Below, one piece after another: positions 1,604 through 62,560 of a stretch of DNA of 64,000 nt. The stretch lies in IMG/VR virus record IMGVR_UViG_3300045988_113959, positions 31,643 to 95,642 of that record; one strand, 5' to 3'. The notes beneath the pieces are model-generated. The model ran no database searches, was not told the DNA's origin, and saw nothing but the letters and a program-made list of their open reading frames with translations. Source of the DNA: a virus. How positions within the stretch are numbered: the stretch's first letter is position 1; every line of letters begins with the position of its first letter. The translations under genes and the position numbers were made by a program.

Positions 1604-4600
1604 TAAACAACAAAACATGCAAGTTAACTCGTTTGATGGTGGTATGAATACAGATGTAGCAGACCATTTAATTAAATCAAATTAGTACAGACTTGCTAAA
1701 AACTTAAGATTTATTTAGGGTAGAGATGGTAATACTGGAGAACTTAAAAGTTTAACATTGCCAGACCATATATATGATGAAGCAAGTGGTCAACTTGGTA
1801 CTATTGTAAGTTCTTGCCAGATAAGAGATTATGGTATTTTGTTTGTATCTAAATAGAATCCAGAAGGGTAGGATTGTTTATATATATATAGGTTCGATAT
1901 TCCAAAAGATAATAGTAAGCTTGTTAATTTCGATAGTAATGCAGCAAGTTTGATATTTGGACCGTGTACTGACTTCAACTCAAAACAAATTGGATTAGAA
2001 GCTATATTTAGACAATATAGTATTGTTGGTAGAGTTGAGAATAATGATAATATGAAACTATACTTAGCTGATGGCGAACATTAGATAATGATTATTGATT
2101 TATTCCCAGACCCAAATAATATACCAACAAGTATTAAATAGATAGAATCTAATAATAATTTCATAATGTATCCTCCTAAAGTTGTTGAAGTTACATACGG
2201 TAACTTAAAAGCGGGTATGAACCAATATAGTTATCAGTTGTATAGACGTTATAAACAGGCAACTCAAGTATCACCATTAACAAAGATAATCCCAATTGTA
2301 AATAAGAAAAGTGGTAATTTGTACGATGGTGTTTTACAAGGTAATAATACCAATATGGGAATAAAGCTCAGATTTAACGTTGATAATAATATATACGATA
2401 CAATAAAGATATTTAGAGTGCATTATGATAAAATAGGAGAGCATCCAGAGATTGATATTATATACGAAGGTGATTATGATGGTACGTTTGAATATATAGA
2501 CTATGGAGGTTAGAGTTTAGGTAAGTTAACAGTCGAAGAGTATAATTCATCATCTGGTATACATATAATACCTAGAGTTATAGAAGCTAAAGATGATTAT
2601 TTATTTGCAGCTTAGATTAAAGAAAAGTCTGTTACAACTGATAAGTTTGATGATATAAACACAATATCATTAAGATTCTCTGAACAAGGTTTTGCATTTG
2701 CAGCTAATTACTCTGATAGATAGAATAAGTTAGATGGTAAAACCATAAATGATTTAAAAGCGAGCAATTGGAAGTTGTTTGATGACACTACAAGGAAAAC
2801 AGATTGTTTTAATATCATTAACGATATGAGTGACTTGTCTGTAAATACAGACGTTTATATGGAAGATATTAGAAAAAATGGAGGTTCTTCTGCATACACT
2901 TATTTATTTCAACCAAAGGATAATGGTATTATTTATTATGGTGGTGTTGGTAAGCATATAGACTGGAGATTTGTTGTAACATAGATTTCTGGAGATGGTA
3001 ATCCAGATGGAAACGAAAATACTAACTTTGATGATTCATCATCTAATATAGATGACGTTTATCTTGGACAGATAGACCCTAAGAAGATTAAGTTAAGTAA
3101 TAGTACAAAAATACCTGTTAGAAATGTTAGTCCAAATAATAATATAGGTTTTAAAAAATACTATATAAATTCTCGTGGAAATTTTGTTGATGCTGGTAAA
3201 ATAAAAGATAGTGGATTATATACTGGTGCATCTTATAATGACCCAATAGTAGCATCAAATCTAAAATCTCTAAGAAGAGGTGAGCTTTACAGATATGGTA
3301 TTATATTTACAGATAGTCTTGGCAATAAGAGTAATGTAAAATGGATTGCAGATATCAGAGTACCTGGATTATACATAAATGGATTTAATACGTTTGAAGC
3401 TGGTGGTATAAAGACAGAGCTTGGTGTTAATGTTCTTGGTGTTGAGTTTAAATTACATGATTTAGATAAATATGATATAGCTCAATATGAAATAGTTAGA
3501 TGTAATAGAACTATAAATGATATATCAATAGTATCACAAGGAGTTGTATCTAGACCTGTTAAGAGATTCTCGTTTAAAAATGATAAGAATTATCCGTACA
3601 CTCCAAACTTTATATTGTCTACAAATAAGTTTATAACATCAGTAGAACTTAATGCAAATCCATTAAATGATATACGTGAGACTAATGGAAATAGACAGTT
3701 AGGTACAAATATATTTAATGACTAGTTATATCAATTCTTATCACCAGAGTTTTCATTTACACCAACAACTGTAACGGATATAATAAAAGGTACAAATGTT
3801 AATATAAATACACTTAAATATCTATTCCCAAATTCGTCGTTTGAAAAAAGACAAGATGAATGGTTTGCTGAAAATCAAAAAAATACACTATTATAGGTAA
3901 ATCATGATGATAACAATCCTAGAGTTATAGATTCTAATGGTTTTGAAAGAAATGCTAAAATATACGATAACTATTCTGGTTATAGTATATTTAAATTCGC
4001 ATACGATTTAAGAATAAGCAAAACTGGTGGTGGTGGAGCACCTGATTACATGGATGATGTTAATAAGGTTGTTGATAAATTAAAAACATCTAAACTTGTT
4101 TTTAAATATTATAATCAATCATCAGTTGTAACAATGCTTCCACATAGAAAAGGATTTGTTGATAACATAACATATAAACTTAATGATAAATTATATACAT
4201 ACGGTACTGTTATGTATACCTCTGATAACATATGTGAAATAAAAAACCTTAAATTTGTAAAAGGAGAGAAGTGGAATGATTTTGGAACATTAGATTCTAA
4301 AGGCAACCCATCTTTAAAATATATAGATTAGATAAATATTGTAGGAACTTATCAATTCTGCAATTGGGTTATGGGTGGTATATATGGACTTAGTGTGAGT
4401 GAGATGAATGCATGGTTTGAAAAACACGGCGATGTAGACTATGTGTACCAATCTTTAGTAGGTCCTGGTTCATCTGGATTATTAATATAGTTGAATAACA
4501 AATGGAAACATTCTGACTCATCTCAACTAAATTCAGAGATATATCAATTAACAGATACTATTGGTTCTAAGGTTATACAAGCTGTAGTTTATAATGATGA

Positions 4601-30500: not shown

Positions 30501-33236
30501 ATTGATGGTAATAATATACCAGAATCAGTAAGGAATATATTAATGGATATAAAATCTTAGATGCGAGATATTCGCAATAAAGTTTTATCTGAAAATCAAC
30601 AAATATCAAAACTATATTATAAGTATTCTGAGCTTATGGACGAATATATAACCAGAGAGAATACAGAATACTATAATGATGTAGAAAGGTCTATAGATGA
30701 TATGCTTCTTGAAGATGAAATAGACGACCCTGGTGTAAGATATGCAATGCTTCTTGACTATGGCTATGACCCAGATGATACTGGAGAGTTTATACAACCA
30801 GATGACTGGTGGGTTAAAACTGTAGCTACAGATAAACTTGAGTATATGGAGTTTACACCTGGAAAAGGTTGGATGTTACAACAAGACGAATCTGTATTCC
30901 TTGACAAAGAGTATGAAAAACTATCTAAGGAAGAAGGAAATAATAGTTCGTTTATACCGAAAAAGAGTCTGTATGATAACTCCCGCGCGTTTGAAAAGAT
31001 AAAAAACTCTGAGGGTTTATATAATTTATATAATCTAACATTAGAGTATATGAAAAAATCAAACGAAATGTAGACTAATAGAATGTTTACAGATGATTAT
31101 CTTTTACCACAGATGCAAGGTTCTTTATGGAAGAGATTAAAAAGAAGTAGAACTAAATGGGCTACATTTATTGAATGGTTTAAAGAATAGATTGGTATAT
31201 CTCAAAGTATTGATGATAGTATCCAATACGGAGAGTCTTCTGCATTGGATGAGAATAGTAATGAGTATGGTAATAAAGAAGTATCAAATATTGGTAAATA
31301 CCCAGATGGTCGTAGATTTAATATACTACCACAGTATTACACAAGAAAGCTATAGGACCCGTCACAATTGTCATCTGATTTAGTTAAAATGATAACAACT
31401 TATTATAACATGTCTTCATTATATAAATATAAATCTGAAATTAAAGACGATGTTGAAAGCTTAATAGATGCTATAGGTAAATAGAAGTTTGCTCAAGATT
31501 ATGCACAATTTTCTACTAAAAAAACAACTGTAGATGGAATAAACTCAAAGACATTTGAATTTATTAATAAGTGGGTTGAAATGAATCTGTATGATAAAGC
31601 AAGACTCAAATTTAATTTCAATAAATGGGGTTTAAATATAAACTTTGATAAGACTTTACAATTATCAAGGAGATATATCACAGCTAGAAACTTAGGACTT
31701 AATCCAAAAGTTGCTGTAGTTGGATTCTTAACAACTATGTATAACCATATAGCTTACACACTAACTGGTCAAAGATATAGCGCTAAAGAAACTTTAGCTT
31801 CTATGCTCGATATAGCTTCAAGAACACTATTCAAACATTTACTTGGAGCTAGAACTATAGGTAATCCATATACTAAAGATAAAATGCTTGTCATAATGAG
31901 TAATTTTGGTATGGCTAATCAGTGGGATAACACTATAAGTCATACGAATAGAAATAGGTTTATACAATCTGCATTTAAACAGTCTATATATGGATTTATG
32001 TCTACCACCGATATATTAACTAAACAATAGATAGCGCAATCAACTCTTAGAGCTCACCATTATGTAGATGGAGAATTTTTAACAAAGTATGACATAAGAA
32101 TGCGTCGTGTTAAAAATGGCGAAGATTGGTTTAATAACGCTATGAAGCAATATAATAAAAATAAATCTTTATGGGATTTAATTGACACTTCAACAGGTTA
32201 GATAAAAATAACTGGCGATAATCAAGATTATAAAGCTGCTTATAAAAAGAGTGAATTTAAAATTAAAAATAGATGTGTTAAATATGCAGAAGAAGCCGAC
32301 GGTATGGCTACACCATTACAAAGAGCTTTACTTGTACGTAGTTGGGCTGGTGTTCTTGTAATGCTTCATAGGCAATATTTTCCACTACTACTTGATAAGT
32401 ATTTTGGTAAAAGAGTGTATGATTATGATATGTAGGAGTACAAAAACGGTCTACATAGAAATATATTTAATTTACTTTCATCTTTAACAGGTCATAATAT
32501 TGTTACAAGTGGACTTATATGGGGTAGTGTTGGAACTTTGTTCTTAGGTCCTGTATTAGGCGGTGGTATTGGGACTGTTGCTGGTATTATTAGTCATATA
32601 CACACACGCAATAAGAATAAAGCTAATGGTGTAAAATCAAAAGGAGTTATAAAAGCATTTAAAGACTTTATAGATGATAAGTCGTCTGATGAAGCATATG
32701 TTAAATCTCTATCAAACAAATATCAACTAAAACAGACTGCTTCTGAAATTGCACTTTATATTGGAATAAGCTAGCTTTCAGCTTTAGCTACAGCTTATGC
32801 AAAAGCATCTGACGATGATGACGCTTGGTGGAAGTATATGTTAGCGTATTGGTTAGAGGCATTTAAATGGGAAGCTTTCAACCCGTATAGAATTGACGAT
32901 ATTTCAAATAACTTCAAAACTGTATCAGCAGCAACATCTATATCCGACGCGTTTAGTGATATTGGTCAAGGTGCAGCATCTGGAATAATGAATAGATTTT
33001 TCCCAAGAATATCAATGCTATATGACCCGTCACTTATGTAGAATATTGGAGACGATGCAGAAGATTATTTCACAACACCATTAGGGTCTCGTTCTCGTAC
33101 ATATGAAGGTTATTCAAAAGCATTTAGAGATATAATGAAAGCAACACCTTTCCATAGTATACCTGAACAAATACATGATTCTAAATCTAAATTAAACTAC
33201 CTTAAAACACAGATAGAAAAGGAACATATTAATTAA
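27564..33236 (+). CDS. large virion/ejection-type protein (1,890 codons, about 20 in-frame TAG) with HExxH motif and C-terminal glycine-zipper segment
   Basis: ATG 27564 lies 4 nt after the upstream TAA-TAA. Tracked ORFs 27708 to 32838 share its frame, and the gaps hold only TAG. Ends at TAA-TAA-TAA 33234-33242. Contains HEIVH at 28299-28313 and LGPVLGGGIGTVAGII near 32545. Confidence 0.85.
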
Positions 33237-44551: not shown

Positions 44552-44633
44552 TGGTAGGTGTGGGATTCGAACCTCACGACCGCTGCATTGTTAGTGCAGT
44601 ACTCTAGACCAAAAACTTCTGAGTTAACCTACC
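44552..44633 (-). ncRNA. tRNA-like gene, 82 nt, anticodon loop CTAACAA (AAC), extended D-arm
   Basis: Reads GGTAGGT-TA-ACTC-(16 nt)-GAGT-A-CTGCA-CTAACAA-TGCAG-CGGTC-GTGAG-GTTCGAAT-CCCAC-ACCTACC-A. The acceptor and anticodon stems are perfect. The T-stem has an A:C mismatch with an 8-nt loop, and the D-loop is oversized. Confidence 0.4.
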
Positions 44634-52197: not shown

Positions 52198-52770
52198 TTA
52201 AGAATTTTTAATTAATTTCTTTTTAATTTTCTCTCTAGTTCTCGATAAGATTGATTTAATCGTTCCTGTCGGAATGTTGAGAGATTCACTAATCTGAACA
52301 ACAGTCATATTATTTACATAAAAAAGTTCAAGAATCTGCTTCATATGAGCAGGAAATTTCTTAAATTCTTCGATGACTCTTTCGTACTCAAGTCGATTGA
52401 CTAAATCAACTTCGTCGGAAGATATAGAAGACGCAAGCGATAGTCGTTCACTCATATCTCCTACAGGTTTCGCTTTGTTTTTTATACTTCGTAAATAATC
52501 AATTGCCGTTCTTTGAGTTAAAATTCTTAACCAACCCCCGAAAGAGTCGAAATCTAAGAATTGCGAGAGGTTATTATAAACTTTAAGGAAAACTATATTA
52601 GTTATATCCTTCGCTTCATCTAAGTCTTTAATATAATAGTATAAAATACCATCAACAAAAGACTTATAGCGATGAAAAAGTTTATTAAAGGCTAGTATAT
52701 TACCAGCCTTAGCGCTCTTGATAAGTTCCACCTCCTCGGGGGTAATACGTGGACTATTTATCATCATCAT
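52198..52770 (-). CDS. ECF-type sigma-70 family RNA polymerase sigma factor
   Basis: Region 2-like F..LF.RY...V.....Y.....AKDITN.VFLKV and GGWLRILTQRTAIDYLR. Region 4 HTH is MTVVQISESLNIPTGTIKSILSRTREKI. Confidence 0.7.
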   Translation of the reverse strand: MMMINSPRITPEEVELIKSAKAGNILAFNKLFHRYKSFVDGILYYYIKDLDEAKDITNIVFLKVYNNLSQFLDFDSFGGWLRILTQRTAIDYLRSIKNKAKPVGDMSERLSLASSISSDEVDLVNRLEYERVIEEFKKFPAHMKQILELFYVNNMTVVQISESLNIPTGTIKSILSRTREKIKKKLIKNS

Positions 52771-52894: not shown

Positions 52895-53608
52895 CTAAAA
52901 AGGCAAATCTGAGGAAAACATCTCAAATCTAATATCTGTTATTTGTTTATTAATGGTAAATATTAAAAAGTTTTCAATATCTTCATCTAATTTACATCTT
53001 TTTATAAGACTATTTAAAATCTTAACTAAAATATCTATTCTGTAATACCCTAAAGATTTCATTTTGAGTATTATGTTTGTATCAGCCCATATTAATACAT
53101 TTTTAAGACCAATATGGCCTTTTATTAATTCATATAGGTCATATGGTAAGAATATAAAATTATCACCATAATGACCTTTACGCTGTTCTCCATCGTAAAC
53201 GATTAAACCTTTTTGGACTAATTTAACTCTAGCAGTATCTTTATATGTTTCTTTTACACAATAATTTTTTTCAATTCCTTTTAATATATTCAATAAACTT
53301 CTCAGAATACAACAGCTAATATTTCTTAAAACTGTAGTATTTACATGTTTAATTCTTAGTATTTTATTATTATATTCTTTATATTTATCGCATATACTAT
53401 TTAAATTGTATTTTTTGTAATTTTCATTGAGTAAGAAATACTCAAATATATCACAAATCACGCGTTCTAAATCTCTATGTTTTTCAAATATATTTGGTTG
53501 TCCAACTTCATGATTAGGTAGTTGAACGTTAACTCTCCAAGATATACATTTCCCATTTAAATACTGATATATATAAAATCCGTTTTTATTTGCTGTTACA
53601 TAATCCAT
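52895..53608 (-). CDS. hypothetical protein (237 aa); stops at TAG
   Basis: Tracked ORF. The plus-strand cta at 52895-52897 is a TAG stop. Confidence 0.5.
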   Translation of the reverse strand: MDYVTANKNGFYIYQYLNGKCISWRVNVQLPNHEVGQPNIFEKHRDLERVICDIFEYFLLNENYKKYNLNSICDKYKEYNNKILRIKHVNTTVLRNISCCILRSLLNILKGIEKNYCVKETYKDTARVKLVQKGLIVYDGEQRKGHYGDNFIFLPYDLYELIKGHIGLKNVLIWADTNIILKMKSLGYYRIDILVKILNSLIKRCKLDEDIENFLIFTINKQITDIRFEMFSSDLPF

Positions 53609-54048
53609 TTTAAATTATTTACAAAAAAATTAGCTAACTCTAACGCTGTGTCTTTGTTAGTTGTTTTAACAAATATGGAATATAGTTCAGAAATAGTTTC
53701 TTCGCTACTCTTCCCCATCGAGAGATTAATCTTTCGTATATTATCTACATACGGAAGATAGTACTTAAACCAATCAACCCAACCAATAGTTGGCTTTAAG
53801 ATTAATTCATCATCCTTTGAGAGTAAATCCCAATCCAAACTCTTTTTATAATCAAACAGTTTATTTTTGTTAGAGATACCCAATATAATTCTAGTAGCAT
53901 TATATCTGTCTTCTTTATTAACATAGATATTTATCTGTTTATCATAAACTAAGTTCAACCATCTCTCTTTGGCTTTACACCATTTGAGAGCTAAATCTAC
54001 GTAGACAGGTATTCTGTCTCGTAGCATATTTTTGTAACCAGTATTCAT
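53596..54048 (-). CDS. hypothetical protein (150 aa)
   Basis: Tracked ORF, overlaps the downstream gene by 13 nt. Confidence 0.5.
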   Translation of the reverse strand: MNTGYKNMLRDRIPVYVDLALKWCKAKERWLNLVYDKQINIYVNKEDRYNATRIILGISNKNKLFDYKKSLDWDLLSKDDELILKPTIGWVDWFKYYLPYVDNIRKINLSMGKSSEETISELYSIFVKTTNKDTALELANFFVNNLKWIM

Positions 54049-54050
54049 AG

Positions 54051-54092
54051 TGAGTATGAGAGGAATCGAACCTCTTTGAGCCTACCATACTC
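54051..54092 (-). ncRNA. acceptor/T-arm minihelix at the 3' end of the tmRNA-like coding piece
   Basis: Reads GAGTATG-GTAGGCTCAA-AGAGG-TTCGATT-CCTCT-CATACTC-A, a self-contained 7-bp acceptor plus T-arm. Confidence 0.4.
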
Positions 54093-54253
54093 ATTCTAAA
54101 CCACTTTGGTAGGTTATCGCATCCACCTGACTTTTACTTACGCTACGCAAGTATAGTCTACAACATTAAAGTTGCCATTTAAATATACACAATATCCTTC
54201 CTAACTAAATAGGTGTATTTACTTCTGATATTAGTCAAACGCCAATCAGCCCC
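54093..54253 (-). ncRNA. ssrA: tmRNA-like gene, coding piece (5' acceptor strand, P2 strand, tag reading frame)
   Basis: Starts GGGGCTGATTGGCGTTTGAC-TAATATC, 18 nt downstream of the acceptor piece. GGGGCTG pairs with CAGCTCC, including G3:U70. TAATATC pairs with GATATTA (helix P2). The candidate tag GGC AAC ... GCG TAA spans 54176-54138 and reads GNFNVVDYTCVA. The 3' boundary is uncertain. Confidence 0.6.
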
Positions 54254-54271
54254 GTTGTTTATCTATTATTG

Positions 54272-54364
54272 TGGAGCTGACGGGAATCGAACCCGTGTCC
54301 TAATATCTTACCTAATACGGGATAAAGTTTCTTTATTAGGGGATGAGTGGAGTAGCGACCTCCA
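54272..54364 (-). ncRNA. ssrA: tmRNA-like gene, acceptor piece (T-arm plus 3' acceptor strand) of a circularly permuted ssrA
   Basis: The minus-strand 3' end is GATATTA-GGAC-ACGGG-TTCGATT-CCCGT-CAGCTCC-A, close to the universal tmRNA 3' end (E. coli GGACGCGGGTTCAACTCCCGCCAGCTCCACCA). A promoter-like box lies just upstream. The 5' boundary is uncertain. Confidence 0.6.
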
Positions 54365-54376
54365 AACATCCGTTTT

Positions 54377-54403
54377 AAGGCTATTTTAAAGCGTTTTAAG
54401 ACG
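54377..54403 (-). promoter_or_regulatory. promoter-like box (minus-strand CGTCTTAAAACGCTTTAAAATAGCCTT)
   Basis: Lies immediately upstream of the tmRNA-like acceptor piece. Confidence 0.45.
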
Positions 54404-54451
54404 ATTTAATCATCTTTGTGATTAGCTACTTCACTTAGACTCATAAAACCT

Positions 54452-54472
54452 CTTAAAACGCAAATAATAACC
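54452..54472 (+). promoter_or_regulatory. promoter-like box in plus orientation (CTTAAAACGCAAATAATAACC)
   Basis: Inverted partner of the 54377-54403 copy, about 48 nt away. Confidence 0.35.
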
Positions 54473-61212: not shown

Positions 61213-62274
61213 TTAAACATAAGTGAGCTTTAGTTTATCTTTTAGTAAATTTACATTTTTACTAACAATTTTGTTTGCTATTTGAGAATCGCTAATAATT
61301 TTATCAATTATTTTCTGTTTATCCTTAACAGCCTTTTCTCGCTTTTCTCTAATATCTAACAAGAAGTTGTTTAACTCGTTAAACAATAGAGATTTACATA
61401 ACATATCACCAATACCGCCTTTTTTATAAGCTTCTTCAAGCTTATATAAAGAATCAACATCTTTTAAAGCTGGAAAAATCTTTGTAAAGTCAAATTCTAT
61501 AAAGTCTTGAATTGTATTTAGATACGTAAACACTACATTTCCTTCAACATTTCCAGGGTCTGAAATTTTCAAATGATTTGGGTCTGTGTACATTTTCTTA
61601 ATTTTTTCCCAAAGTTCTTTTTGGTTATCAGATAAATATATACAATTTCCAAAACTTTTACTCATCTTCTCATGACCATCTATACCTGGTAATCTACCAG
61701 CAATTTTATTTTGTGGTAGTAGTATTTCAGGCTCTTTAAAGATAATTTCATCTTTATTGATTTTTCTAACAATTCTCCTTGTCAGTTCAATCATTGGTCT
61801 TTGGTCTTCTCCAGCAGGAACTATATCAGTATTAAAACCTAATATATCTGCTGCTTGAGATACAGGATACATAAAGAAACCCAAAGGTGTACTTTCTTCA
61901 AATTTTCTTTGTTGAATCTCACTCTTTATAGTTGGGTTTCTTGACAAATCATTTATACTAACGTAATTTGTAAGTAATTGTGTTAGTTCACAAAGAGCTG
62001 GCACTTGACTTTGTAACACAAAGCTTAGTTTGTTATTACTCAACACATCTAATCCGACAGATATATAATCTAATGCAACTTCTATTACATTATCTTTTAC
62101 CTTTTGTGGATTGTCTATGTTATCAGTCAGCGCCTGCATATCTGCTATAAGAACATACATGTGTTCTGTATCTTCTTCAAATAGCAGATGGATTCTTTGT
62201 AATAATGAGCCTACAAAGTGACCTAAATGCAGTCTCCCTGTAGGCCTATCTCCAGTTAGTATTATTTTACCCAT
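61213..62274 (-). CDS. trpS: tryptophanyl-tRNA synthetase (class I)
   Basis: HIGH motif is TGRLHLGH and KMSKS is HEKMSKS. MYPVSQAADILGFNTDIVPAGEDQRPMIELTRRI closely parallels bacterial TrpRS YPxLMAADILLYxTDxVPVGEDQKQHxELTRD. The start is placed at ATG 62274 (MGKIILTGD...), 7 nt after the upstream TGA; the tracked ORF extends to 62331. Confidence 0.85.
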   Translation of the reverse strand: MGKIILTGDRPTGRLHLGHFVGSLLQRIHLLFEEDTEHMYVLIADMQALTDNIDNPQKVKDNVIEVALDYISVGLDVLSNNKLSFVLQSQVPALCELTQLLTNYVSINDLSRNPTIKSEIQQRKFEESTPLGFFMYPVSQAADILGFNTDIVPAGEDQRPMIELTRRIVRKINKDEIIFKEPEILLPQNKIAGRLPGIDGHEKMSKSFGNCIYLSDNQKELWEKIKKMYTDPNHLKISDPGNVEGNVVFTYLNTIQDFIEFDFTKIFPALKDVDSLYKLEEAYKKGGIGDMLCKSLLFNELNNFLLDIREKREKAVKDKQKIIDKIISDSQIANKIVSKNVNLLKDKLKLTYV

Positions 62275-62281
62275 GTAGTTT

Positions 62282-62560
62282 TCAATCGCAACAGTCTTCA
62301 AGATTCTCAAGACTGTCAACTTTCTGTTCAACTTTCATTGCCGAAGAATTATTCAGTATCAACTGCTTTGTTACAGTATGATATTCCTGGTACGCCTTAA
62401 TTAACTCTATTTTATAGTCTAAAGTTTTGTAATTAGCATACTCCAGAGAGCCTAAGATTCGCCCTCCAAATAAATTAATGATAAAATATGTTGTTAATAA
62501 ACCTAATCCAAAGCATAATAAATTCATTATTATGTTGTCTTCTTTTTTATCGTATTTCAT
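62282..62560 (-). CDS. small membrane protein (92 aa)
   Basis: Hydrophobic helix IMNLLCFGLGLLTTYFIINLFGG. Confidence 0.5.
   Translation of the reverse strand: MKYDKKEDNIIMNLLCFGLGLLTTYFIINLFGGRILGSLEYANYKTLDYKIELIKAYQEYHTVTKQLILNNSSAMKVEQKVDSLENLEDCCD

Follow-up and report, generated by a model that had tools for sequence, protein, structure and literature searches.

Two-piece (permuted) transfer-messenger RNAs (tmRNAs) are known from alphaproteobacteria, betaproteobacteria and cyanobacteria (Rfam families RF01849-RF01851). In their genes the acceptor piece lies upstream of the coding piece, helices P1 and P2 join the two pieces, and the coding piece ends past the first pseudoknot downstream of the tag (PMC3985003, PMC11915505). 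These RNAs typically retain the pseudoknots PK1 and PK2, and the maturation of their permuted precursors is probably the work of RNase P and tRNase Z (PMC3985003). Phages carry tmRNAs of this type as well: 53 of 133 distinct phage tmRNAs are two-piece, mostly marine (PMC9004378), and the tmRNA database holds 79 phage sequences from RefSeq viruses (PMC11915505). Here we analyze a locus with the same order of pieces and the same P1 and P2 joining in a stretch of 64,000 nt (hereafter the window), positions 31,643 to 95,642 of IMG/VR virus record IMGVR_UViG_3300045988_113959, which comes from a crAss-like gut phage (Crassvirales, Suoliviridae; nearest record Bohxovirus PV686213). From its sequence and that of its relatives, the locus very probably encodes a functional two-piece tmRNA. 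It is like the bacterial two-piece RNAs also in that its coding piece ends past the first pseudoknot after the tag, and unlike them in having no detected PK1, in resuming at Gly or Asp instead of Ala, in its tag, in a tRNA-like minihelix at the 3' side, in a structured leader, and in being carried by a phage whose hosts have one-piece tmRNAs. Coordinates below are window positions on the minus strand unless another sequence or strand is named.

The earlier note on this DNA, made from its letters alone, proposed a permuted tmRNA gene and thought it unexpected in a crAss-like phage. The gene is there, and it is less of a surprise than the note held, since phage two-piece tmRNAs have been published (PMC9004378) and RefSeq carries the label 'transfer-messenger RNA, SsrA', a bare automatic call, in at least seven Suoliviridae genomes. 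These are cr130_1 (NC_055901), cr131_1 (NC_055902), cr124_1 (NC_055899) and cr7_1 (NC_055895) of Oafivirinae, cr125_1 (NC_055900) and cr115_1 (NC_055898) of Uncouvirinae, and cr52_1 (NC_055888) of Loutivirinae. With the window they have in common a syntenic position upstream of a sigma-factor gene, a permuted order of pieces, the G3:U70 pair and related tags, and in the six whose sequences were read (cr130_1, cr131_1, cr7_1, cr125_1, cr52_1 and cr115_1) also the 3' tRNA-like module; the window differs in having the shortest type of spacer (18 nt) and the most reduced minihelix (10-nt linker). A full-text literature search found no paper discussing a tmRNA in crAss-like phages, and the main recoding papers do not mention tmRNA. 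The gene call itself is therefore not new, and the databases annotate a lineage that has no published description. What is undescribed is a lineage that was found in phages and not in bacteria, with a reduced RNA, a variable spacer, a 3' minihelix, a covarying leader hairpin and, among the genomes tested, an occurrence only in those recoded at TAG.

Reading the sequence directly, we found every part named in the earlier note where the note had placed it. ARAGORN, which the note had proposed as a check, calls a permuted tmRNA at 54361-54047 with the tag GNFNVVDYTCVA*, the outer bounds (54361 and 54047) being fixed offsets and not true ends. The note had also proposed a comparison with the Rfam families. 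In a search of the whole 64-kb window, the Rfam 15 model RF04321 (tmRNA_permuted), a merged model of two-piece tmRNA that covers the tRNA-like domain alone, matches 54331-54138 with 68.2 bits (gathering threshold 47, E = 5.4e-11). At the gathering threshold this is the window's only tmRNA match, with none to the lineage models RF01849, RF01850 and RF01851, and in E-value mode no lineage model beats a partial match to RF00023. The standard one-piece tmRNA was rejected as a reading, because RF00023 reaches only 43.2 bits (cut-off 47) on the acceptor half alone and because the downstream minihelix strand CAUACUC is unable to pair with GGGGCUG. When the halves are swapped in silico, so that the coding piece is joined to the acceptor piece, ARAGORN calls a standard one-piece tmRNA with the same tag. 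Folded by minimum free energy (MFE), the 319-nt precursor shows P1 as the closing stem of the spacer loop, together with the T arm, P2a, the hairpin H5 and the minihelix, and none of 100 shuffles is equally stable (z = -2.85).

The gene begins with the acceptor piece (about 54363 to 54272, or 54461 to 54272 with the leader), followed by the 18-nt spacer and the coding piece (54253 to about 54093); counted from hairpin H0, the two pieces come to about 250 nt. H0 opens the acceptor piece (GGAG-GUCGCUA-CUCC, 54349..54363, located by a per-sequence hairpin search) and is weak in the window's clade; in other clades it has 10-11 bp and the loop (U)UGAUCA, with stems that differ by clade. Three strands for pairing with the coding piece come next: P2c (UAUCC, 54320..54324, with GGAUA at 54197-54193, supported by RNAduplex in every clade), P2b (GUAU, 54315..54318, with AUAC at 54218-54215) and, past the conserved internal-loop sequence UAGGUAA (54314-54308), P2a (GAUAUUAG, that is GATATTA(G), 54300..54307, with CUAAUAUC, that is (C)TAATATC, at 54234-54227). 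The GGAC element (54300-54297) overlaps the 3' strand of P2a and leads into the T arm (ACGGG-UUCGAUU-CCCGU, 54280..54296, seen in the sequence, in the Rfam match and by covariation), the acceptor 3' strand CAGCUCC (54279-54273) and the discriminator A (54272). Of the CCA end the gene encodes just the first C, so CCA must be added. The coding piece starts with the acceptor 5' strand GGGGCUG (54247..54253), which carries G3 and pairs with CAGCUCC at 7/7 positions, G3:U70 included, as the note had read it. Between P1 and P2a lies the D-loop analogue AUUGGCGUUUGA (54235..54246; conserved as UGG..UUUGA(C/U) in alignment A1, described below), and between P2b and P2c a small hairpin (CCUA-UUUAGU-UAGG, 54200..54213, from A1 and the MFE fold) that is limited to the window's clade and a large sister clade. 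P1, P2a, P2b and P2c are able to pair the two pieces and would restore a tRNA-like domain that has the alanine identity elements G3:U70 and discriminator A, a 7-bp acceptor stem and a T arm with T loop, and no anticodon arm. The tag frame (54138..54176) runs into H5 (54135..54153; 8 bp, loop UAG, from covariation and the MFE fold), which contains the last tag codons and the stop, and is followed by an H-type pseudoknot (54099..54127) with the conserved loop AAAGU, formed by S1 (GGUG 54127-54124 with UACC 54111-54108) and S2 (AACC 54115-54112 with GGUU 54102-54099).

To find relatives, we scanned IMG/VR with three sequence patterns, which gave about 40 homologous loci (denoted by L numbers below). 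The patterns missed divergent members in Burzaovirus, Uncouvirinae and Loutivirinae, which were found solely via synteny with a gene for a sigma factor of the ECF (extracytoplasmic function) type (52201-52770) that lies two to three genes downstream of the tmRNA and keeps its position in Suoliviridae. Three subfamilies of this family keep the tmRNA gene in the same syntenic place, upstream of the gene for the sigma factor. The explicit structure was scored on a MAFFT alignment of 38 distinct sequences (A1), and H0, P2c and the minihelix, which fall out of register between clades in MAFFT, were scored sequence by sequence. Among the 38 sequences, 94.5% of the proposed pairs form, compared with 31-42% for slid partners; 21 of 40 pairs have changed at both positions, and the covariation score is 0.26, against 0.077 for shuffles (0/500). 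Two-sided changes are found in all 8 pairs of P2a, in 4 of P1, 2 of the T arm, 3 of H5 and 4 of the pseudoknot (3/4 in S2 and 1/4 in S1), and they bear out the earlier reading of TAATATC/GATATTA as P2, which the MFE fold recovers as well. The T arm (99-100% paired, its three remaining pairs being invariant G-C), the pseudoknot (99-100%), P1 (95.9%) and H5 (94.9%) are paired almost throughout. P2c exists in seven sequence versions, always next to P2b in every clade, and P2b itself is invariant (38/38), so that covariation is neutral on its pairing. The U:G combination at the G3:U70 position is present in 37 of the 38 rows; the one deviating row reflects an offset in the alignment, as a GGG start and 7/7 pairing can be read in every sequence, and G3:U70 and the discriminator A are kept in the divergent members too. 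A further helix between the 5' end of the acceptor piece and the 3' end of the coding piece, hinted at by the MFE fold, was rejected as no better than shuffles in most clades (p 0.04-0.98). In searches of the relatives, RF04321 scores 50-75 bits in four clades and overlooks three divergent clades, which stay under its threshold, and ARAGORN overlooks the largest clade.

The tag frame provides evidence of another kind. ARAGORN and the earlier note give the same frame, from the resume codon GGC to the stop UAA, with the peptide GNFNVVDYTCVA; it has no start codon and 12 codons, and its stop codon lies within H5. Among ten distinct 13-codon tags, pairwise single-nucleotide codon differences are 154 synonymous vs 40 non-synonymous in this frame, compared with 14:161 and 61:98 in the other two frames, and variable sites at codon positions 1/2/3 number 2/3/7. 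TAA and TGA serve as stops and TAG never does, which is what one would expect of a phage that reads TAG as sense. On these counts, the tag frame evolves as a coding sequence and appears to be translated. With the divergent members included, the family tag is approximately (G/D)-N-x-x-(x)-[VI]-x-[DN]-Y-[TS]-x-[VIL]-[VA]-A. The note had remarked that the tag does not end in LAA; this is so, but it is no difficulty, as the endings found in the family (-CVA, -HVA, -NVA, -LVA, -IAA and -EAA) are all hydrophobic and Ala-terminal, similar to -LAA. The same data bear on whether the locus could be a chance match or a non-functional relic, such as a fragment of host ssrA left from an integration site, given that partial ssrA 3' ends are common in temperate phages integrating into ssrA (PMC9004378). 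Both halves of the gene are present here, compensatory changes occur in five helices, one site is held across three subfamilies, the E-value is 5e-11 and no bacterial counterpart was found. We regard a relic or chance origin as refuted by the covariation and the coding constraint on the tag, and assign it next to no probability.

To explore where this RNA comes from, we searched 185,579 bacterial and archaeal species representatives (GTDB) with a pattern specific to the family and obtained 0 matches. Marine myophages (Melnitz, pelagimyophages and cyanophages) likewise carry a complete permuted ssrA in the early region, but their tmRNAs resemble permuted tmRNAs of the host lineage and are linked to a glutamine riboswitch (PMC9004378); the crAss-type gene has no counterpart among the bacteria searched, and its presumed hosts have a standard tmRNA. 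Matches to the Gly-first tag pattern G-E-x-N-Y-A-L-A-A are almost confined to Bacteroidota, and a Gly resume codon is typical of tags in that phylum, which agrees with the earlier remark that a GGC start is Bacteroidetes-like. Segatella copri, Bacteroides, Prevotella, Paraprevotella and Odoribacter have one-piece tmRNAs, about 395 nt long, in which the tag lies at position 96. The Bacteroidales RNA shares with the phage RNA the Gly resume codon, the 'UG|GC' context, a very similar D-loop analogue, and a GAGGG/CCCUC T stem identical to that in several phage clades; in Bacteroides sp. GD17 the T stem and acceptor 3' strand match one divergent phage member exactly (L043, IMGVR_UViG_3300028591_000011, locus at about 3693-4240, minus strand). 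It differs in that the host genes are unpermuted, have PK1 (tag at 96) and further downstream pseudoknots, and encode the tags GENNYALAA or GETNYALAA, unlike the phage tag. The simplest reading would be that a tmRNA of the host type became permuted and smaller in the phage lineage, in an event separate from the alphaproteobacterial, betaproteobacterial and cyanobacterial cases.

The two pieces are separated by an intervening spacer of 18 nt (54254..54271), which is predicted to be removed; the end at 54272, the spacer and the start at 54253 all stand as the note had read them. Spacers measure 16-19 nt in the window and many relatives and 62-79 nt elsewhere, where two or more inserts unrelated to each other are found; single lineages have 103, 175, about 190 and about 255 nt. 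The nearest relatives of the window (96-98% identical) bear a 78-nt spacer insert that the window lacks. Such freedom in length and content fits a discarded segment. It is possible to suppose instead that the two pieces arise from separate transcripts and not from one cut precursor. Spacers up to about 255 nt long, one of them with a 52-codon open reading frame (ORF), would leave room for this, and in some relatives the spacer holds a terminator-like hairpin (loop GGUUCGUGAGAAUAG) with a U run; but a spacer of 16-19 nt, as in the window and many relatives, is too short for a terminator and a promoter, the 5' end needs to be set exactly at G1 in any case, and promoter and terminator signals inside the gene do not rise above chance (in a sigma-70-type scan, which is ill-suited to Bacteroidota). 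Separate transcription is accordingly quite improbable in our estimation, and a single precursor is preferred.

Several observations on the spacers stand by themselves. The ORF of 52 codons (MKGYIVLYKVNDKD...) lies in the spacer of L043 (about 190 nt). A cloverleaf-like element is found as a tRNA-like spacer insert in cr130_1 (L002, about 2868-2935), and the spacer of L098 contains a second T arm and a CCAGCUCCA end; these sequences suggest repeated insertion or duplication of tRNA-type modules in the spacer. The hairpins with the conserved 15-nt loop GGUUCGUGAGAAUAG have variable, covarying stems and are usually followed by a U-rich run. They are present in tmRNA spacers or flanks of some relatives (L001, L104 and L076) and also in the window around tRNA-Arg (57407-57381, 57038-57010 and 56840-56812).

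Directly past the pseudoknot lies the tRNA-like minihelix (54051..54092), with a GAGUAUG/CAUACUC stem, a 10-nt linker, the T arm AGAGG-UUCGAUU-CCUCU and a discriminator A. Its family comprises 14 acceptor-stem and 11 T-stem versions in which pairing is kept, always at this place, with linkers of 10 to about 70 nt. We rejected it as a true tRNA, because a cloverleaf is absent, the score against the Rfam tRNA model RF00005 (17.7 bits, with D and anticodon arms deleted) is below 29, and ARAGORN is blank even at relaxed settings. At the same position, L043 bears a complete tRNA(CAU) and cr7_1 a D-armless element annotated as tRNA-Cys, and in cr273_1 tRNA genes follow directly after the tmRNA. These comparisons suggest that the minihelix may be what is left of a tRNA and may still guide RNase P and RNase Z. 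The next gene (53596..54048), encoding 150 aa of no known family, has its ATG 3 nt past the minihelix. Punctuation of transcripts by tRNA-type elements is familiar from mitochondrial tRNAs and from MALAT1-mascRNA, and minihelices are substrates of RNase P and the CCA-adding enzyme. The window resembles such cases in having an acceptor-stem and T-arm module between two functional RNAs at would-be RNase P and RNase Z cuts, and differs in that its module would be a decayed tRNA, not a dedicated structure, and that cleavage is predicted.

Similar minihelices occur elsewhere on the minus strand of the window (57004-56950, 45541-45491, 44264-44204 and 37268-37226; about 1.6 expected by chance under a looser definition). 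They are intergenic, lie in the early block, have no D or anticodon arms and resemble decayed tRNAs kept as processing signals. The same strand also bears a 71-nt marginal tRNA-Thr(GGU) at 44364-44293, called by ARAGORN at relaxed settings only, and at 44552-44633 a tRNA recognized by Rfam (53 bits) and not by ARAGORN, with a 13-nt D-loop insertion and the anticodon loop CUAACAA, which may have a long variable arm, as in the tRNA-Leu(UAA) of cr131_1.

Putting these elements together, we propose a processing scheme that we hold to be moderately likely. The host's tRNA enzymes would cleave one early-region transcript, RNase P on the 5' side of G54253 and of the minihelix (54092), and RNase Z or exonucleases on the 3' side of A54272 and A54051, and the CCA-adding enzyme would complete the acceptor end. 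The minihelix would then act as tRNA-type punctuation that delimits the coding piece at its 3' end and the following mRNA at its 5' end. The RNA would be charged by the host alanyl-tRNA synthetase and brought to stalled ribosomes by host SmpB and EF-Tu; translation would resume at GGC and add A-GNFNVVDYTCVA (C-terminal ...AGNFNVVDYTCVA). This tag is hydrophobic, ends in Ala and would probably send the product to proteolysis; at UAA the ribosome would be freed.

The conserved RNA extends further upstream than the note had supposed: the tmRNA lies inside the locus that it drew from 54403, but a leader hairpin (54391..54461, alignment A3) carries the conserved region to 54461. Conservation between clades in A3 covers about 200 nt on the upstream side of the acceptor piece. 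The outer stem of 13 bp pairs GCGUUUUAAGAGG (54461-54449) with CGUCUUAAAACGC (54403-54391) and encloses an inner hairpin GUGA..UCAC (54434-54418). Pairs form in 90.4% of cases compared with 33-56% when slid, 9 of 17 pairs have changed on both sides (0/500 shuffles), and G:U pairs occur. No Rfam family matches the leader, for which a 5' leader, a regulatory element or a part of the mature RNA are the candidate roles. A third copy of the repeat CUUAAAAC (54372..54379), conserved in A3, might form an alternative structure with the 5' strand of the leader stem. At the equivalent site in cr125_1, directly upstream of the tmRNA, there is a RAGATH-9 RNA, and the Suoliviridae early region near the syntenic site holds RAGATH-12, a RAGATH-1 hammerhead, a hatchet ribozyme, RAGATH-9, RAGATH-22 and group I introns (L097 9921-9999, L015 3644-3722, L034 3605-3681, L104 617-686, L267 1508-1636 and 2867-3035, L268 1530-1730 and 2385-2629, L269 964-1125 and 2439-2728); none of these RAGATH, ribozyme and intron families reaches threshold in the window.

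It is also evident that the phage genome bearing this gene is recoded, as the earlier note had held of a crAss-like, TAG-recoding phage. Reading TAG as sense fuses plus-strand ORFs (about 400-32000) into products of 5683, 1891 and 1560 aa and leaves the minus-strand block, with the tmRNA, DnaB, the sigma factor and tRNA-Arg, unaffected. Because only plus-strand ORFs are fused, the late genes are taken to be TAG-recoded and the tmRNA to lie in a standard-code early or middle block. Among relatives, as many as 148 in-frame TAGs occur in 5443 codons (cr7_1). We scored recoding by in-frame stop codons in annotated late genes across 11 related genomes, and absence of the tmRNA by examining 50 kb per genome, including the syntenic site. 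Every genome with the tmRNA is TAG-recoded (the window, cr131_1, cr7_1, cr125_1, cr52_1 and cr115_1; 6/6), and the standard-code genomes cr1_1, cr55_1 and cr118_1 have none detected (3/3). The contrast holds inside Uncouvirinae, where the recoded cr125_1 and cr115_1 have the gene and the standard-code cr118_1 does not. Moreover, experiments show tmRNA acting at UAG codons where decoding and termination are both inefficient, which blocks viruses containing UAG (PMC6207430), so that a recoding phage has a plausible reason to control trans-translation. We would accordingly suggest as the role of this RNA that it keeps up ribosome recycling during infection. The extra need would most probably stem from the phage's own UAG reassignment, given that the gene is seen solely in TAG-recoded members of the family. 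The link with amber recoding, raised in the earlier note, keeps the association in its favor and has the recoded relatives without the gene (see below) against it; we hold it to be possible more than probable, and treat the association as a lead, not a result.

A functional tmRNA might equally serve as a general top-up of rescue capacity while host mRNA is degraded and translation is under load, its co-occurrence with TAG recoding being inherited from a common ancestor. That tmRNAs, two-piece ones included, are present in many non-recoded phages speaks for this (PMC9004378; 79 phage tmRNAs, PMC11915505), as do the recoded relatives without the gene and the study of Yutin et al., which leaves tmRNA unmentioned for 243 recoded crAss-like phages; the 6/6 and 3/3 distribution and the contrast inside Uncouvirinae are harder to accommodate. 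Such a general role is a serious candidate that we stop short of calling probable.

Two observations concern the decoding of TAG in these phages. A tryptophan-tRNA ligase is encoded at 61216-62331 (TIGR00233 trpS, 212.7 bits, cut-off 176.75; Pfam tRNA-synt_1b, E = 4e-52), and a phage enzyme of this kind in a TAG-recoding genome raises the question of the amino acid carried by the amber suppressor. In cr131_1 (NC_055902, 9258-9330, plus strand), the tRNA-Gln annotated by RefSeq (tRNA-Pyl in ARAGORN) has the anticodon CUA, which makes it an amber suppressor, and it heads the TAG-recoded late block; no CUA-anticodon suppressor tRNA of that kind lies within the 64-kb window.

The partner protein SmpB bears on a further alternative. 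No Pfam or PHROG match to SmpB was found in the two flanking 150-aa ORFs and eight more neighbors. With no phage SmpB gene found, the phage tmRNA must fit the host SmpB, and it could be that it works as a competitor of the host tmRNA, occupying SmpB and stalled ribosomes while a phage-specific peptide (core ..V-D-Y-T..) evades host ssrA degradation or reroutes the products. The phage RNA would indeed have to compete for a host protein, the middle of its tag (N-V-V-D-Y-T) is under selection and differs from the host GE(N/T)NYALAA, viruses whose UAG codons are unassigned are blocked through tagging by the host tmRNA (PMC6207430), and the tmRNA of mycobacteriophage DS6A, which has no coding sequence, reportedly inhibits the host tmRNA (PMC11915505). 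Against this, the family's tags end in -VA, -LVA, -IAA and -EAA, hydrophobic and Ala-terminal like ordinary ssrA degrons, and truncated products gain nothing by evading degradation. A synthetic LVA tag variant is, besides, rapidly degraded in E. coli. Competition with the host tmRNA is improbable on balance, and rescue of ribosomes by a functional two-piece tmRNA remains our preferred reading.

That reading has points against it. No PK1 was detected between P2 and the resume codon by an all-against-all covariation scan and by eye, and the distance from P2c to the resume codon is just 12-20 nt in several clades; as PK1, though common, is missing from some tmRNAs, its lack lowers typicality and leaves identity unaffected. 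The acceptor-piece T loop of L043 is non-canonical (AGACAUA in place of UUCGAxx), and Dulem virus 42 does without the T-arm minihelix, which makes the module dispensable. SmpB has no match among the 34 minus-strand ORFs of the window and none in the annotation of the complete cr131_1 genome. Two TAG-recoded relatives, cr4_1 and cr6_1, have no detected tmRNA in the 50 kb examined, the one-sided Fisher value for the 11 related genomes is about 0.06, and shared descent could explain the association. Moreover, how the tmRNA is processed and how it acts are inferred throughout. With these points weighed, the account as a whole (a two-piece tmRNA with its processing, action and role) is in our judgment likely to be the best explanation.

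A wider and more doubtful proposal is that Suoliviridae hold an independently permuted tmRNA lineage, derived from a one-piece tmRNA of the Bacteroidota type, matured by decayed-tRNA punctuation and kept because of UAG reassignment, in which a phage-specific tag peptide is used to clear ribosomes that stall or run off once amber no longer stops them. If true, two-piece tmRNA would have a fourth origin of the bacterial type, and for the first time one tied to a change of the genetic code. Because ARAGORN and Rfam each overlook different clades, the family is under-annotated in gut virome catalogues. The minimal design, with no PK1 found, one pseudoknot and about 250 nt, could inform what trans-translation requires. 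Furthermore, if the RNA works as proposed here, it would represent a separate, virus-borne origin of the two-piece design, and phages that give a stop codon a new meaning partway through infection would bring their own ribosome-rescue device, which would offer a testable handle on the side effects of recoding.

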